This document shows, in pieces, positions 9,410-60,431 of a stretch of 64,000 bases of DNA. The stretch is from Alphaproteobacteria bacterium (lineage in GTDB: Bacteria > Pseudomonadota > Alphaproteobacteria > Rs-D84). The notes under the pieces were generated by a model, which worked only from the letters and a program-made list of their open reading frames with translations, did not search any database and was not told the origin of the DNA. How positions within the stretch are numbered: position 1 is the stretch's first letter; each line of letters starts with the position of its first letter. The stretch lies in assembly GCA_017443235.1 (NCBI GenBank), contig JAFSOV010000004.1, forward strand, positions 974 through 64,973, written 5' to 3'. The position numbers were made by a program, and so were the translations under genes.

Positions 9410-9660
9410 TTGCCTTGTTGTTGTCTTTTCGTTTAACATCGATATGAGCCAAATGGGAATTTGGTTCGGGGCTGTGGTAGGCCCACGCTAGTTCGGTGCA
9501 ATGCATCGTAATCCATTGGATTCTCATGTTTTTGCACCGTCGTAATGTCCCCGACTGTGGTCGGGGTGCGGGTGGCGTATATCAAAAGGTCATCTGGATC
9601 GTTAACTAGCGTGATTTACCAACACCCCGACCGTCAATTCCCCTTTGACGGTTTCTTTAT
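9410..9660 (+). promoter_or_regulatory. type I structured leader, copy A (promoter, ~200-nt RNA, terminator-like hairpin)
   Basis: TTGCCT-18-TAACAT promoter. Shares TTGGTTCGGGGCTGT..GCCCA..TTCGGTGCA and a compensated long-range helix with 32424-32680. Ends with ACCGTCAA-loop-TTGACGGT plus a T-rich tail. Confidence 0.55.
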
Positions 9661-28744: not shown

Positions 28745-28953
28745 AAAAAGAAACCACCCGAAATAAATTCAAAGTGGTTGGAGTCTTAACGACAATCAAG
28801 CGAATTGCTGTGCTTATTCAGTATATTCACACACTCCAACCAGTGGTTGGAGATTTTTGTGTCCCTCCGGACACGCCTGACATGGGCGTTAAGACCCACA
28901 GACGGAACGCCCGTCTGTGATTTCATAATAACATTTTATATGCGAAAAGGCAA
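28745..28953 (-). promoter_or_regulatory. type II (CTCCAACC) leader/sRNA module, copy a
   Basis: On the minus strand: TTGCCT-17-TATTAT, hairpin CAGACGG/CCGTCTG, CTCCAACC-AGT-GGTTGGAG hairpin, a second CTCCAACC overlapping the terminator AACCAC..GTGGTT, then a T-run. Confidence 0.6.
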
Positions 28954-32423: not shown

Positions 32424-32680
32424 TTGACTTTTTTCCTGTTTGCGTGTAAAGTTTTTCATGAATCCAAGAGATTGGGTTCGGGGCTGTCACAAGCCCATCT
32501 CATTCGGTGCATAAGCATCGTTAAATTGTTAGCATGGCGCGTTTGCGCCGGCTTTCCCCGCATGGTCGGGGAGTCGTGGTTATACAATAGGGGTAACCCG
32601 AAACCCACGAAATCAATAATGAGATGATTGTGAACTCCCCGGCCGTCAATCTTTTGGCGGTCGATTTTATTTAACCAAAA
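32424..32680 (+). promoter_or_regulatory. type I structured leader, copy B
   Basis: TTGACT-17-TAAAGT promoter. Same conserved blocks as 9410-9660. Helix CATCTCATT/AATGAGATG replaces ACGCTAGTT/AACTAGCGT. Terminator-like CCGTCAA..TTGGCGG plus T-rich tail. Confidence 0.55.
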
Positions 32681-32688
32681 GGGAAAAT

Positions 32689-33333
32689 ATGAAAAAATTA
32701 TTGTGTGCTTTGGGCTTGCTATGTGTGTTGTGTGCATGTGACCGAAACGAAAACAAAAAGCAACAATCACCACTAGTAAAAAGTGTAATAACTTTTCGGG
32801 CTTTTCATCAGGATGTTTGCAAATGTGTTCTTGGGAATATGCCGACATTTGTTAAGACACTTAATTCAGACGGGTATAATAATATCAATGCTTTTTGTTT
32901 TTGGGGTGCATATTTTTGTTCAAACCAAAAATCAGACGAAACCATTATGGCCGCTGCTAAAGTCATTGACGGTTTAGACAGTTTCCAATGCGCCGATCCG
33001 CACTTTAATGAAAGGTTTGTTGCGGCCAGTGAAAAGGCAGGGGTCGATGCTTTGTGTCCCGCTATATGGCAACAAGATAATGTTTTGTATTTAAGCAAAT
33101 TGGCGCATTTAACAAATTCGTGTCAGTCAACATTTGGTAAAAGCGAAATCGAATGTTTGTGTGCGGTTGATAATTATATGTCGCATTTGTCTGAAGCCGA
33201 ATTCAAAGCATTAAAAAGTTATGGGCAATTCTTTCCTGGTTATGGGTGGATGGCGAATACCAAAGCAAAACAACAAATGACCGTCAGCATAATGACAAAA
33301 ATGCGAAATGCGGTTGCGGCATGTGCAGAATAA
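32689..33333 (+). CDS. cysteine-rich lipoprotein, unknown function
   Basis: Signal peptide with lipobox VLCAC. 214 aa. Confidence 0.6.
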   Translation: MKKLLCALGLLCVLCACDRNENKKQQSPLVKSVITFRAFHQDVCKCVLGNMPTFVKTLNSDGYNNINAFCFWGAYFCSNQKSDETIMAAAKVIDGLDSFQCADPHFNERFVAASEKAGVDALCPAIWQQDNVLYLSKLAHLTNSCQSTFGKSEIECLCAVDNYMSHLSEAEFKALKSYGQFFPGYGWMANTKAKQQMTVSIMTKMRNAVAACAE

Positions 33334-49945: not shown

Positions 49946-50530
49946 ATGAAAAACACAAAAGAAAAATTGTTGGAAAATGCGACTACTATGTTCGCAGAGC
50001 ATGGATTTGACGGCGTATCTACACGCAGTTTGGTTACCGTGTCCATGGTGAATTTATGCACAATAAATTACTATTTCGGTTCCAAACAGAAATTATATGA
50101 TGCGGTTATTGACAATATTATAAATAATGTTCAAGAAAACCTTATTAAAAAGACGGATGAATATATCAAATGCAATATTCCGGCCGGTGAAAAAATTGTT
50201 TTTATAATTGGGGAATTTTTTGATTATCTGTTTTCTAATAATGTTTCAAATTCTATGGCATTGATTTTGTTTCGCGAATTGTTAAACACAACACCGGGTG
50301 GCGACAGAATTTATTCAGAAATTATGGAGCCATTAAAAAAACAATTTGTAAATTTGATAATCCAAGAAACCGGCGCAACAAAACAAAGCGCATATATCAA
50401 TGCACATTGCCTGGTTAGCCAGACCGTATCTTTTCGATTATTGCAAAACAGAAAACATTATTCACGCGAATTTCTAAAAAGCGCAAAGCAACAAATTATC
50501 GAAAACTGTAAAAAAATTTTGGAACATTAA
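49946..50530 (+). CDS. TetR-family transcriptional regulator
   Basis: N-terminal HTH FAEHGFDGVSTRSLVTVSMVNLCTINYYFGSKQKLY. Confidence 0.8.
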   Translation: MKNTKEKLLENATTMFAEHGFDGVSTRSLVTVSMVNLCTINYYFGSKQKLYDAVIDNIINNVQENLIKKTDEYIKCNIPAGEKIVFIIGEFFDYLFSNNVSNSMALILFRELLNTTPGGDRIYSEIMEPLKKQFVNLIIQETGATKQSAYINAHCLVSQTVSFRLLQNRKHYSREFLKSAKQQIIENCKKILEH

Positions 50531-50557
50531 AAAACGGAATCAATCGATTCCGTTTTT
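50525..50557. repeat. terminator hairpin, left copy of a duplicated ~33-bp sequence
   Basis: CATTAAAAAACGGAATCAATCGATTCCGTTTTT recurs at 53471-53506, with three extra A there. Confidence 0.8.
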
Positions 50558-50604
50558 TTAGTTTTTGTTTTCTTAACTAGAAATATGGGATTTGTTTAAG
50601 AAAA

Positions 50605-51516
50605 TTACTTTTCTTCATCTGGTAATCTGCCAAACGGAAGGAAATTTATACCACCCGTTATGTTGGCATGTTCCGCGCCACCAATTTGATAATTTCCCAA
50701 TGTTACTATCCACATTAAATTACCGTTATCATCAAATGCACCCCCACCGGAATTACCACTCCAGCCTTGGCAGCCTGTAAACTGACTTTTTGAATTTTGG
50801 GAACATTTAGAAACTTTTAATAAATTGTCTTCAAAACGCCGACGATTGTTCAAAATAAACATTTCTACGCCGTTGCCACGCACCCCACCATCCGCCGTAT
50901 GAACGTCTTGGACCTTAACAACATTCTCGATAAACTTTATATAATCATCCTTAATTTCTTGTATTTCTTGATCACTCATTATTTTTAATGCACCATAACC
51001 AATAATCCGGACATCTTTGGCACCACGGGCAAAAGAATCGTTTATTTTTACATACGCACCATCTAAAACCTCTTTTACACCATCGGCTGAATTTGACCCG
51101 ATTGTTAGCAATCTGTACTTTGCCCAATCCCCATTTGGGTTCGTTCCATCGGCATAATTAAAATTGCCCTTTTTAACCAACCGTGCATTAAGTTCGCGAC
51201 CATTTGGCAACCTGATTCTTACCAAATCATCAATAATATTATCGTGATTAGAATCTACACAATGTTTGGCGGTATATAAAAAATATCCCACATCGTCTTG
51301 TGTTAGCCCTTGTCTTTTTACTATGGTCCCCGAACAATGTGTGCGTTCATTGGCAAAAACAAATGTCGCAACCGCATTATATGGTTTCTCTTGTTTTTGT
51401 TCATCGGTAACATAGCACCGTTTATCAATCGTATACAATTCAGGATTGGTACACGCATCATCAGCCCAAGAAATTAACGGTACGCACAATAAAAACCATA
51501 CGATGATTTGTTTCAT
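50605..51516 (-). CDS. secreted trypsin-like (S1) serine protease
   Basis: Signal peptide, His block TAKHCV, Ser block GWSGNSGGGAF. Confidence 0.75.
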   Translation of the reverse strand: MKQIIVWFLLCVPLISWADDACTNPELYTIDKRCYVTDEQKQEKPYNAVATFVFANERTHCSGTIVKRQGLTQDDVGYFLYTAKHCVDSNHDNIIDDLVRIRLPNGRELNARLVKKGNFNYADGTNPNGDWAKYRLLTIGSNSADGVKEVLDGAYVKINDSFARGAKDVRIIGYGALKIMSDQEIQEIKDDYIKFIENVVKVQDVHTADGGVRGNGVEMFILNNRRRFEDNLLKVSKCSQNSKSQFTGCQGWSGNSGGGAFDDNGNLMWIVTLGNYQIGGAEHANITGGINFLPFGRLPDEEK

Positions 51517-51518
51517 AA

Positions 51519-52220
51519 TTATTCGATATTTGGTTTACAATCATATCCATAATCACTAAGGCTTAATGCAATGTCCGTGATCCTCCTATCTCTGATCTGA
51601 ATATTCCCATGCGTACCAGAAAAAACCTGTTCCGAATATCCGTTGGTAACAGATGTCGTGGATTCACAATTAACAATAGGAACCAAACAACAAACATTAT
51701 AAAATTTATTTTTGCCGCCCTTGCTGGCCGGTCGGCTTACAACACATCTATTATCTGTTTTGGAACAATCTATATTTTTGCTTGTTCCCGGAATAATAGT
51801 ATAGCCGTCATAACTATGTTCATTGCCACATTTACTTCTCGCCAGCCTTTCCATATATGATTGATGACACTGGGAATGTTCTTTAACACCGGTTTCTACC
51901 ACAATCTTGGCCGAAGACATTGCGACATACCAAACATATTGTAAATTTCTGTCATAATCCAAATCAGGCCAACTCTTACAATCCTCCAGTTCTACTGAAT
52001 GCCACATTTGTTTATCACCGTCCGTATAAGGCAAGAGTAGATCTATTTCGCTTACATTCGCATAGTTAACAATTTTTTTACACAACACGATCGCCGTTGC
52101 CAAATCAATCTTGCCGGCAATGTAATCCGCATTCATAGATTCTATATTGAATGGCGGATTGTCACAATACGCGTTTTGGACATAAAACAAACAGGACAAA
52201 ATTATTAAAAAATTCTTCAT
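51519..52220 (-). CDS. secreted cysteine-rich protein, unknown function
   Basis: Start at MKNFLIILSCLF with RBS AGGAGAG. Signal peptide. Confidence 0.55.
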   Translation of the reverse strand: MKNFLIILSCLFYVQNAYCDNPPFNIESMNADYIAGKIDLATAIVLCKKIVNYANVSEIDLLLPYTDGDKQMWHSVELEDCKSWPDLDYDRNLQYVWYVAMSSAKIVVETGVKEHSQCHQSYMERLARSKCGNEHSYDGYTIIPGTSKNIDCSKTDNRCVVSRPASKGGKNKFYNVCCLVPIVNCESTTSVTNGYSEQVFSGTHGNIQIRDRRITDIALSLSDYGYDCKPNIE

Positions 52221-52230
52221 ATTTTCTCTC

Positions 52231-53199
52231 CTACTGTTGCAAAGCCTCTTCACACATTTCGGCTTGGCGTATCATTTTTTTTGTTAAAGTTATTAGTGAA
52301 ATATTTAACCCCGTCTCTACCAAACCTGTACCAACATTAACCCCCGACATTATGTTGGCCGTCGTATTCAAATTATTTACACTTTGTTTTTCAGATTCTG
52401 TTAAGGCGATTCTTTGTTCCGCATTCATATATTTATTGGAATTGGATGATGCACTGGCCGCTGTGCCAATACCACCAACCACAACGCCTGCGATTGATGT
52501 GCCCATTACACCTTTCATACGTTTTTCTATTTTTTGTGCATCACTGACGTTTATCTGGTTACACCAGGTCTTTACATTATTGATTTTTTTCGCTATTGGA
52601 TTATCCAACGGACTTACACCCGCAGATGTCAATTTGGCCGGCATATCTGACAAAGATTTTATCATTTTATTGCACGCCTCTATATGCTGAATCAAATCAG
52701 ATTGATTTGCGTTTACGCCCGATATTATTGCAGATGCCAAATTTGTGCCGATTGTTCCGGCCATTAAACCGGTGCGCCAATTACCCAATTTTTTAGAGCG
52801 GTCTAATTTGTTCTGTAATTCCGCAATTTCTGCCATCGGGGAAATTACATCGGTATAAAATTGTTCAAGACTCATTGTTTTGATACTTTCCGCAGAGCAA
52901 CCACCTTTTGCGCATATTTGGTCTATCAATGATTCTATTTCCCTTTCTTCGCTTGATTTCGCTATGCCAACGGCCAACGCACCACCGGCTGCAACGGTTC
53001 CAACCCCGGTTACCGCGGTGTTTATTTTTGATACATTTGAAACTTTTGAAATTTCATCGGATAATCCCGAACAAACTATTTTTGTGGCATTAAACAATTC
53101 TGTTGCGTTGTTAACAATATTGTCGCTATCAGAATCTACTTGGCCGAACGACTGGACGGTTATTAAGCCGAATATACACACAACTATAAATTTTTTCAT
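52231..53199 (-). CDS. secreted protein with four glycine-zipper-like hydrophobic segments
   Basis: Signal peptide. Segments TGVGTVAAGGALAVGIA, GLMAGTIGTNLASAIISG, MGTSIAGVVVGGIGTAA and GVNVGTGLVETGL. Confidence 0.6.
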   Translation of the reverse strand: MKKFIVVCIFGLITVQSFGQVDSDSDNIVNNATELFNATKIVCSGLSDEISKVSNVSKINTAVTGVGTVAAGGALAVGIAKSSEEREIESLIDQICAKGGCSAESIKTMSLEQFYTDVISPMAEIAELQNKLDRSKKLGNWRTGLMAGTIGTNLASAIISGVNANQSDLIQHIEACNKMIKSLSDMPAKLTSAGVSPLDNPIAKKINNVKTWCNQINVSDAQKIEKRMKGVMGTSIAGVVVGGIGTAASASSNSNKYMNAEQRIALTESEKQSVNNLNTTANIMSGVNVGTGLVETGLNISLITLTKKMIRQAEMCEEALQQ

Positions 53200-53237
53200 A
53201 CCTTATCCTTTCTTTACGAATGTTCGATTAGACACGA

Positions 53238-53453
53238 ACAAAAAACCACCAGACAAAGCAAGTGGTTGGAGGTTCAGAACTATTATGCTCGGCAAATAGT
53301 GGGCTTATTCAACATATTCACCGCCCTCCAACCCTGCCTTAGGTTGGAGGTATTTTTTGTCCCCGCGGACACCGAACATAACAAGGGTTCTGACACCCAA
53401 CAAAGCAACCGCCCTGTCAATGGTATGTTACACTAAAATTGGATAAAAATCAA
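53238..53453 (-). promoter_or_regulatory. type II (CTCCAACC) leader/sRNA module, copy c
   Basis: On the minus strand: TTGATT-17-TAACAT, CCTCCAACC-loop-GGTTGGAGG hairpin, GAATAT..GAATAAG box, a second CCTCCAACC overlapping the terminator AACCAC..GTGGTT plus T6. Confidence 0.6.
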
Positions 53454-53470
53454 AACAATAATAAAAACAC

Positions 53471-53506
53471 CATTAAAAAAAAACGGAATCAATCGATTCC
53501 GTTTTT
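53471..53506. repeat. terminator hairpin, right copy of the duplicated sequence
   Basis: CATTAAAAAAAAACGGAATCAATCGATTCCGTTTTT. Confidence 0.8.
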
Positions 53507-60210: not shown

Positions 60211-60431
60211 TTGCATTAAAATTACTTTGATGCTAACATTCACTATGTCGGTGGGTGTTCCGCCGATGGGGTGTGAAGACCCCTTTACATGTGGCCCGTA
60301 TGGGCAAAAAACTCCAACCCCAGGGTTGGAGGGATGCGAATAATATAGGGCCCAGCCCATAAAATAAGCACACAATTTGCATGTAAATTGTCTTCAACCT
60401 CCAACCACTCGAATTTTTCGGTGGTTTTTTA
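60211..60431 (+). promoter_or_regulatory. type II (CTCCAACC) leader/sRNA module, copy d
   Basis: TTGCAT-17-TAACAT, hairpin TCGGTGG/CCGCCGA, GGGGT..ACCCC, CTCCAACC-CCA-GGGTTGGAG, then CCTCCAACCAC overlapping the terminator AACCAC..GTGGTT plus T6. Confidence 0.6.

Follow-up and report, generated by a model that had tools for sequence, protein, structure and literature searches.

A promoter-proximal leader RNA of the sRNA-Xcc1/IsrK kind as a probable default-off transcription attenuator of a three-gene operon in an alphaproteobacterium of the order Rs-D84

Introduction

The C4 antisense RNA of phages P1 and P7 (RF01695) has the same layout as the small RNA IsrK (RF01394), in which a promoter, a short structured RNA and a terminator precede genes that are reached only by read-through. 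In Salmonella Gifsy-1, read-through of the IsrK terminator makes the downstream mRNA, on which the short form of the RNA then acts in trans (PMC4825925). A related RNA, sRNA-Xcc1, was verified by Northern blotting as a species of 88 nt (PMC2996969) and lies upstream of symE in integron cassettes of Xanthomonas (bioRxiv 10.1101/2025.06.18.660453). Xylella holds seven copies of it, including a tandem array, beside members of the C4 and isrK families (PMC12189769).

Candidatus Enterousia is a genus of the order Rs-D84, gut Alphaproteobacteria that are uncultured, have reduced genomes of 0.6-1.1 Mb and possess neither a TCA cycle nor a respiratory chain (PMC12306168). The locus described here, whose closest named relative is a Candidatus Enterousia MAG, belongs to a 64,000-nt stretch of DNA that was analysed as a whole (the window). 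An earlier note on this DNA had proposed that one copy of a repeated leader, copy c, combines a promoter, a switch and a terminator, and that the three genes behind it can be expressed only by transcription through that terminator. In this study, we have examined copy c together with its sister copies and orthologs. From these comparisons, copy c is an extended variant of the sRNA-Xcc1/IsrK kind which most likely serves the three-gene operon as a default-off transcription attenuator.

Results

Reading of the sequence and the covariance model R1 delimit the leader RNA of copy c as 181 nt on the minus strand (53239-53419). R1 was built from sister copies (171 positions, 48 pairs) and matches copy c over its full length (model positions 1-171) with 119.5 bits and E = 3e-33; the 201-nt copy c region has a folding z-score of -4.8 against shuffles, so that both values lie far beyond chance. 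The proposed promoter, TTGATT-17-TAACAT, was recovered at the position that promoters of the sister copies occupy (Table 1), so that copy c has a promoter of its own at the family position. In the 90-copy profile, the family has a -10 consensus of TAnAAT at -11 to -6 from the RNA start and TTG at -35. The copy c promoter agrees with 8 of 12 consensus positions and was missed by the generic promoter scan, the -10 box of the ortholog L065 reads TAATAT, and transcription is predicted to start near 53417-53419. The switch and the terminator were likewise both found on the minus strand where the note had placed them. Behind them stands the announced three-gene minus-strand operon, at a distance of 40 nt and not of 45 nt: this co-oriented reading frame is preceded by the Shine-Dalgarno sequence AAGGA, 6 nt before the ATG of gene 1 (53199).

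Table 1. Positions of the parts of leader copy c, of the operon behind it and of further leader copies in the window
Feature	Position	Strand	Basis or remark
Bidirectional cvpA terminator, strong, insulating the leader promoter	53479-53506		Scan
-35 box TTGATT	53448-53453	-	TTG at same distance kept in 90-copy profile; invariant in four orthologous leaders
-10 box TAACAT, 17-nt spacer from -35	53425-53430	-	At -11 to -6 from covariance-model start
P1 hairpin, GACAGGGC / GCUUUGUU	53399-53418	-	All 9 pairs changed on both sides, 90 copies
P2 hairpin (GGG/CCC)	53385-53398	-	83% paired, almost no covariation
P2 loop UCAGAAC, 5' strand of long-range helix LR	53387-53393	-	All 8 LR pairs covary; 93% of cells paired
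P3 hairpin (GUGUCC/GGGACA), then A-run 53352-53357	53358-53372	-	All 5 pairs covary
P4 hairpin: CCUCCAACC 53350-53342 (anti-antiterminator arm) and GGUUGGAGG 53333-53325 (shared arm)	53325-53350	-	-18.4 kcal/mol; 7 of 8 pairs covary; three-way covariation
P5 stem around GAAUA and GAAUAAG, the two most conserved unpaired motifs	53302-53322	-	All 4 pairs covary
P6 hairpin (ACUAUU/AAUAGU)	53279-53300	-	All 4 pairs covary
LR 3' strand GUUCUGA, partner of P2 loop	53274-53280	-	RNAalifold, independently; covariation
Second CCUCCAACC, 3' strand of antiterminator (AT) helix	53264-53272	-	Overlaps terminator 5' arm by 4 nt
Intrinsic terminator: 7-bp stem AACCACU/GGUGGUU (53267-53244), 10-nt loop, U6 ending at 53240	53240-53267	-	Hairpin -7.3 kcal/mol; all 9 pairs covary in family; compensatory change in L065
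40-nt spacer with Shine-Dalgarno AAGGA (53210-53206)	53200-53239	-	Read from sequence; no promoter-like site by scan
Gene 1: 322-aa secreted helical protein, four Gly-rich hydrophobic segments	52231-53199	-	AlphaFold2; signal-like N-terminus (heuristic)
Gene 2: 233-aa Cys-rich (12 Cys) secreted protein	51519-52220	-	No family match; signal-like N-terminus (heuristic)
Gene 3: S1 (trypsin-like) serine protease with signal peptide	50605-51516	-	Pfam Trypsin_2; signal-like N-terminus (heuristic)
Hairpin with same sequence as cvpA terminator, distal operon end, common to convergent tetR	50529-50558		Scan
Strong leader copies in the window	28747-28919, 41783-41938, 53239-53419, 60246-60431		R1
Divergent leader copies in the window	9445-9658 and 32459-32667	+	R1

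The fold of the leader was assessed on 90 copies, some of them from the genus and the others from its family or from further families of the order. In the alignment fitted to the model, a procedure which favours nested helices, 90.7% of cells are standard pairs, against 67% in shuffled and at most 49% in slid alignments; 48 of 50 pairs have changes on both sides, and covariation reaches a score of 0.617 (slid controls, 0.12 or less). The covarying helices are P1, LR, P3, P4, P5, P6 and the terminator. RNAalifold, run on a plain MAFFT alignment, recovered P1, LR, P4, P5 and the terminator, with compensatory changes in 24 of 34 pairs. LR joins the P2 loop to the 7-8 nt directly 5' of the second CCUCCAACC, and its sequence varies by copy, being UCAGAAC/GUUCUGA in copy c and UUAAAGAC/GUCUUUAA or AUAGAAAAC/GUUUUCUAU elsewhere. 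The P2 stem and an alternative extension of LR (invariant G-run, GGGG:CCUC) both fit, and neither covaries. One subfamily of leaders, found before HTH genes, has no P3. The AAUA motifs, 92-98% conserved in the 90 copies, are the best conserved unpaired bases of the family.

The centre of the proposed switch is a strand with two possible partners. In copy c, GGUUGGAGG is complementary, at nine of nine bases each, to the upstream CCUCCAACC (forming P4) and to the downstream CCUCCAACC (forming AT), and the last four bases of the latter are the first four of the terminator stem. Although the AT helix stands outside the covariance model, it is paired at 97.7%, and six of its nine pairs carry double changes. 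Substitutions occur in step on all three strands: at one column triple, 51 copies read A-U-A and 17 read G-C-G, at another, 74 read A-U-A and 7 read U-A-U, and at least six distinct three-strand versions exist, for example GGCAGGAGG with CUUCUGCC and CCUCCUGCC, or GGUAGGAAG with UUCCUACU and CUUCCUAUC. A pair that exists only in AT also covaries (G-C in 74 copies, U-A in 7). Because the three strands change together and the AT-only pair covaries, the alignments give direct evolutionary evidence that both mutually exclusive pairings are in use and that the switch is real at the RNA level.

Calculated energies favour one of the two states. In copy c, the P4 hairpin (-18.4 kcal/mol) and the AT duplex (-18.5 kcal/mol) stand beside LR at -9.3 and the terminator hairpin at -7.3 kcal/mol. 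The family-consensus terminator state reaches -35.9 kcal/mol, against -26.6 kcal/mol for the nested antiterminator state, about 9 kcal/mol in favour of the stop fold; the second value leaves LR uncounted, since it would be a pseudoknot there. P4 is also local and transcribed first. From the energy advantage of the stop fold and this order of transcription, we infer that termination is the default state and that opening the switch takes an input.

As a side observation on the folding of this copy, its 5' end and P1 5' arm (53399-53425) are complementary to the terminator loop and 3' arm (53244-53260), which gives a long 5'-3' helix in the minimum free energy fold of copy c. This pairing was noted in copy c and was not seen as a feature of the family.

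We next turn to the dependence of the operon on the leader. A separate promoter between the terminator and 53199 was sought with the generic scan, and no sigma-70-like site was found between the leader terminator and the ATG of gene 1. A look-alike noticed by eye, TTGTCT-18-TCTAAT, was rejected as a second promoter: it is buried in the terminator, is absent in L065 and has no A at position 2 of its -10 box, where an A is near-essential. In the orthologous operon L065, whose gene 1 is 79% identical, the terminator is only ~19 nt from the ATG, which therefore leaves no room for a promoter there. The four orthologous leaders (this genome, L061, L062 and L065, with gene 1 identities of 79-98%) keep the promoter and every stem, their changes being confined to loops apart from one compensatory change in the terminator. 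With no usable second promoter behind the leader terminator, and with cvpA closed by a terminator of its own, the operon most likely needs read-through of the leader terminator. The earlier statement that downstream expression must pass the terminator is thus supported from several sides, namely the cvpA terminator, the promoter-free spacer, the ~19-nt spacer of L065 and the covariation of both helices. Whether copy c is the clearest case of this, as had also been said, is arguable, since the spacer is shorter still in most sister copies (median 26 nt).

The same arrangement recurs across the family. A same-strand reading frame preceded by a Shine-Dalgarno sequence starts within 60 nt of the U-tract in 64 of the 90 copies (median 26 nt), against 2 of 90 in the antisense control. 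This bears on a simpler reading, in which the leader is a free-standing small RNA gene with an ordinary terminator, leakage into the operon is unregulated and the alternative pairing is merely inherited from the sRNA-Xcc1 fold. Such a gene would agree with the weak terminator, with the tandem arrays described below and with the status of sRNA-Xcc1 as a verified 88-nt small RNA (PMC2996969). It would leave unexplained the strict same-strand position 20-40 nt before a reading frame, and the competing upstream arm, which is kept by three-way compensation in at least six variants, would be purposeless in a plain small RNA; we hold this reading to be very unlikely. Read-through would more likely be regulated than constitutive and partial, although the terminator hairpin is weak (-7.3 kcal/mol) and constitutive leakage could be enough for expression. 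A leader-peptide attenuator was also considered and discarded: the leader ATG at 53313 has disappeared from L061 (GAATATATTG), and 21 of the 24 copies of the genome do not have it.

Copy c belongs to a large family. With nhmmer and R1, we found 24 strong and 5 weak leader copies in its own genome (985 kb, 94% complete). R1 finds the leader in 113 of the 121 genomes of the same family and in 142 of the 151 of the order (genomes of 0.5-1.1 Mb), with 1 to 23 or more copies per matching genome, as well as 8 of ~99 other alphaproteobacterial families sampled. One of the divergent matches in the window, at 9445-9658 on the plus strand, scores 29 bits against R1 (E = 6e-7). Rfam placed no family on copy c, neither when the window was searched at gathering thresholds nor when the locus was searched at E <= 10, and a search of a phage DNA collection gave no match. 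By its sequences, this is an uncatalogued leader RNA family, a large structured class outside Rfam with a distant relationship to phage and integron small RNAs.

The genes downstream of the 24 own copies are varied: 7 encode secreted proteins, 7 XRE-like HTH proteins, about 7 small unknown proteins and 3 others. At seven loci (for example 41547-41759), a leader copy without P3 precedes a paralogous XRE-like HTH protein of 70-75 aa with a Cys-rich C-terminus (GFCxLRCK), and about seven more copies stand before unrelated proteins of 50-80 aa without a known family. These neighbours have to be weighed in judging whether the leader could be a metabolite or ion riboswitch, with the pseudoknotted junction (AAUA/AAUA loops, G-run, A-run) binding one ligand for a regulon of more than 20 members. 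A complex fold with conserved unpaired bases, a terminator/antiterminator platform, a copy number per genome that recalls c-di-GMP riboswitches and the lack of a match to any Rfam class are all features that a new riboswitch would have. We nevertheless judge this reading improbable: the best conserved unpaired bases are common to sRNA-Xcc1, a small RNA without a known ligand, the downstream genes share no metabolic or transport theme, and one whole subfamily does without P3.

The relationship to sRNA-Xcc1 was examined by searching RF02221 over the whole genome. Seven matches were found below its gathering cut-off of 53 bits, five of them inside leader copies of the XRE-like-HTH subfamily (28-36 bits). 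On copy c itself, RF02221 gave no match at E <= 10; copy c is therefore not an Rfam member, and its kinship runs through the sister copies. Aligned through a sister copy, the closing 9-bp G/C-rich helix of sRNA-Xcc1 corresponds to the AT helix, both forming three-way junctions, its hairpin 1 (AAUA...AAUAA loops) to P5, its hairpin 2 to P6 and its linker to the LR 3' strand. Copy c shares the columns of the closing helix and of the two hairpins with these aligned sister copies, and in this respect has the sRNA-Xcc1 fold. Both kinds of RNA are co-oriented upstream of a small gene and occur in multiple and tandem copies. Unlike sRNA-Xcc1, the leader has ~90 nt more upstream (P1, P2, P3 and the competing CCUCCAACC arm) and a separate terminator hairpin, pairs its linker to the P2 loop, and has a predicted product of ~180 nt instead of 88 nt; its host setting is a chromosome-wide regulon in Alphaproteobacteria, whereas that of sRNA-Xcc1 is an integron cassette. 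On the evidence of this alignment, the antiterminated state of the leader is the ancestral small RNA fold, to which the upstream competitor arm, P1-P3 and the terminator were added.

A possible intermediate between the classical small RNA and the leader family was noticed within the window. The sRNA-Xcc1-like RNA at 32459-32667 on the plus strand (core 32564-32652), another of the seven RF02221 matches, scores 43 bits against RF02221 and 19 bits against R1. It belongs to a serine-integrase island, where 37 nt separate its core from a downstream gene for a Cys-rich lipoprotein (32689-33333), and the logic of its hairpin, closing helix and terminator is that of the leader family, so that it looks like such an intermediate.

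With IsrK, the leader shares the order of promoter, short structured RNA, terminator and read-through genes, and also the two RNA conformations; neither RF01394 nor RF01695 (C4) matches any leader copy at E <= 10. In IsrK, control is exerted in trans on the translation of the long transcript, whereas the alternative pairing of the leader overlaps the terminator, which therefore points to termination as the control point. In this it resembles the PyrR-controlled pyr attenuators and the expression platforms of riboswitches, where one strand has two partners and one of the choices frees the terminator. It differs from them in having no Rfam cis-regulatory match and no known binding motif, and in a sensor part that would be a pseudoknotted junction of phage-small-RNA ancestry.

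The parallel with IsrK raises the possibility of a dual-function module, which would extend the attenuator model: the terminated ~180-nt RNA would itself be a regulator in trans, and read-through alone would not suffice for expression. Its targets would be its own read-through transcript, via the copy-specific helix between P2 loop and linker, or sister copies, via the invariant GGUUGGAGG/CCUCCAACC. The core resembles sRNA-Xcc1, whose relatives C4 and IsrK work in this way (for IsrK, PMC4825925). Relatives of the present genome also contain tandem arrays, of three modules in L036 (1501-2089, minus strand) and four in L056 (875-1669, plus strand), as are known for sRNA-Xcc1 in Xylella (PMC12189769). 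The members have a promoter and a terminator each, and those upstream have no reading frame; in L036, each TTGnnn-17-TATAAT promoter overlaps the previous terminator, and a reading frame stands only behind the last member. Such arrays suggest that the short RNA may itself be functional. Against this reading, intramolecular folding fully explains the LR and AT helices, and neither the spacer nor the beginning of gene 1 yielded a complementary target site. In addition, tblastn searches of all contigs with the E. coli Hfq and CsrA sequences, a weak test, gave nothing below E = 0.1, so the usual small RNA chaperones may be missing from the genome. Taken together, we find a dual function unlikely.

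The operon itself is compact, with gene spacings of 11 nt and 2 nt and a Shine-Dalgarno sequence that overlaps the stop codon of gene 1; gene 2 most likely starts at ATG 52220, 11 nt after that stop. Gene 3 scores 30.8 bits against Pfam Trypsin_2 (cut-off 27.6) and has TAKHC and GNSGG, the motifs expected of an active S1 protease; it matched no PDB sequence. Neither gene 1 nor gene 2 matched a Pfam or PHROG family. Gene 1 has 1087 homologues in metagenomes, all without a name. Its AlphaFold2 model is all-helical with moderate confidence (pLDDT 65) and does not place the Gly-rich segments, and a Foldseek comparison with the PDB gave no fold match (best E 0.09, TM at most 0.26). The idea of an alpha-pore-forming toxin was dropped, as matches at TM 0.13 are not evidence.

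The gene-1 family occurs in 117 of 151 genomes of the genus, with up to 12 paralogues per genome, and an S1 protease usually stands immediately behind gene 1, a conserved pair of a strongly expanded family (50605-53199; loci L066-L092). We asked whether the leader is conserved along with this family and found that it is not: only 4 of 29 gene-1 homologue loci in other species have a leader, three of them directly upstream, and the other 25 lack it. The scarcity of gene-1 loci that carry it shows that such operons do not need the leader; it is a movable 5' module rather than a part of the operon type. Many of the other gene-1 homologues have a TGATATAAT box 7-12 nt before the ATG or stand behind an M23 peptidase gene; in many species, a -10 box TGATATAAT this close to the ATG suggests leaderless mRNAs.

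Discussion

The detailed comparison of leader copies allows us to propose how the operon could be controlled. We consider it fairly probable that copy c works as a transcription attenuator, as would the other members of its multi-copy family of promoter-proximal leader RNAs. In this model, RNA polymerase would start at ~53418 from the promoter of the module, and the nascent RNA would fold P1, P2 and P3 and then the local P4 (CCUCCAACC / GGUUGGAGG). With P4 closed, the downstream CCUCCAACC-AC would be free for the terminator hairpin, and most transcripts would end at U6 as a ~180-nt RNA, the OFF state, which we take as the default. If GGUUGGAGG paired instead with the downstream CCUCCAACC, the RNA would adopt a three-way junction made of the closing AT helix, P5 and P6, that is, the sRNA-Xcc1 fold. 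The AT pairing would remove four bases from the terminator stem, and polymerase would enter the operon for the helical protein, the Cys-rich protein and the S1 protease. LR, which ties the P2 loop to the bases directly 5' of the second CCUCCAACC, would bring the two halves together. Among possible inputs, we would rank a trans-acting macromolecule first (a protein, or a short leader RNA as in IsrK) and a small molecule after it. Sequence and covariation show the fold, the two exclusive pairings and the positions of promoter and leader; the OFF default, the reliance of the operon on read-through and a regulated choice are inferred. The model predicts that none of the helical protein, Cys-rich protein and S1 protease is made before the switch opens.

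At the scale of the genome, an RNA module that occurs about 24 times, before secreted proteins, proteases and small HTH proteins, would be the main known regulatory device of these bacteria. A broader scenario, which we put forward only tentatively, is that these bacteria have domesticated a small RNA of phage or integron type (the sRNA-Xcc1/C4/IsrK kind) and made it a genome-wide cis-acting attenuator, whose 20 or more copies per genome gate much of the secretome and small regulators, and that copies may cross-talk via the GGUUGGAGG/CCUCCAACC of their short products. If this were true, the cross-talk between copies would amount to an RNA-only regulatory network in genomes of less than 1 Mb with few protein regulators. 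For RNA biology, the family offers an uncatalogued class with very strong covariation and a clear three-strand switch, and would make visible an evolutionary path from a mobile-element small RNA to a chromosomal attenuator.

Two further observations concern the surroundings of copy c. The plus strand at 53325-53350 carries P4 in reverse complement and then the A-run in its complementary form; this scores as a terminator and could stop antisense transcripts from entering the leader. Leader and operon form a cassette that has one and the same terminator hairpin on both sides (50529-50558 and 53479-53506). This cassette is AT-richer (38-40% GC) than cvpA (47%), and in another genome (L092) a different gene-1 paralogue and tetR fragments are found behind cvpA. 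The cvpA site thus looks like a hot spot for cassette exchange.
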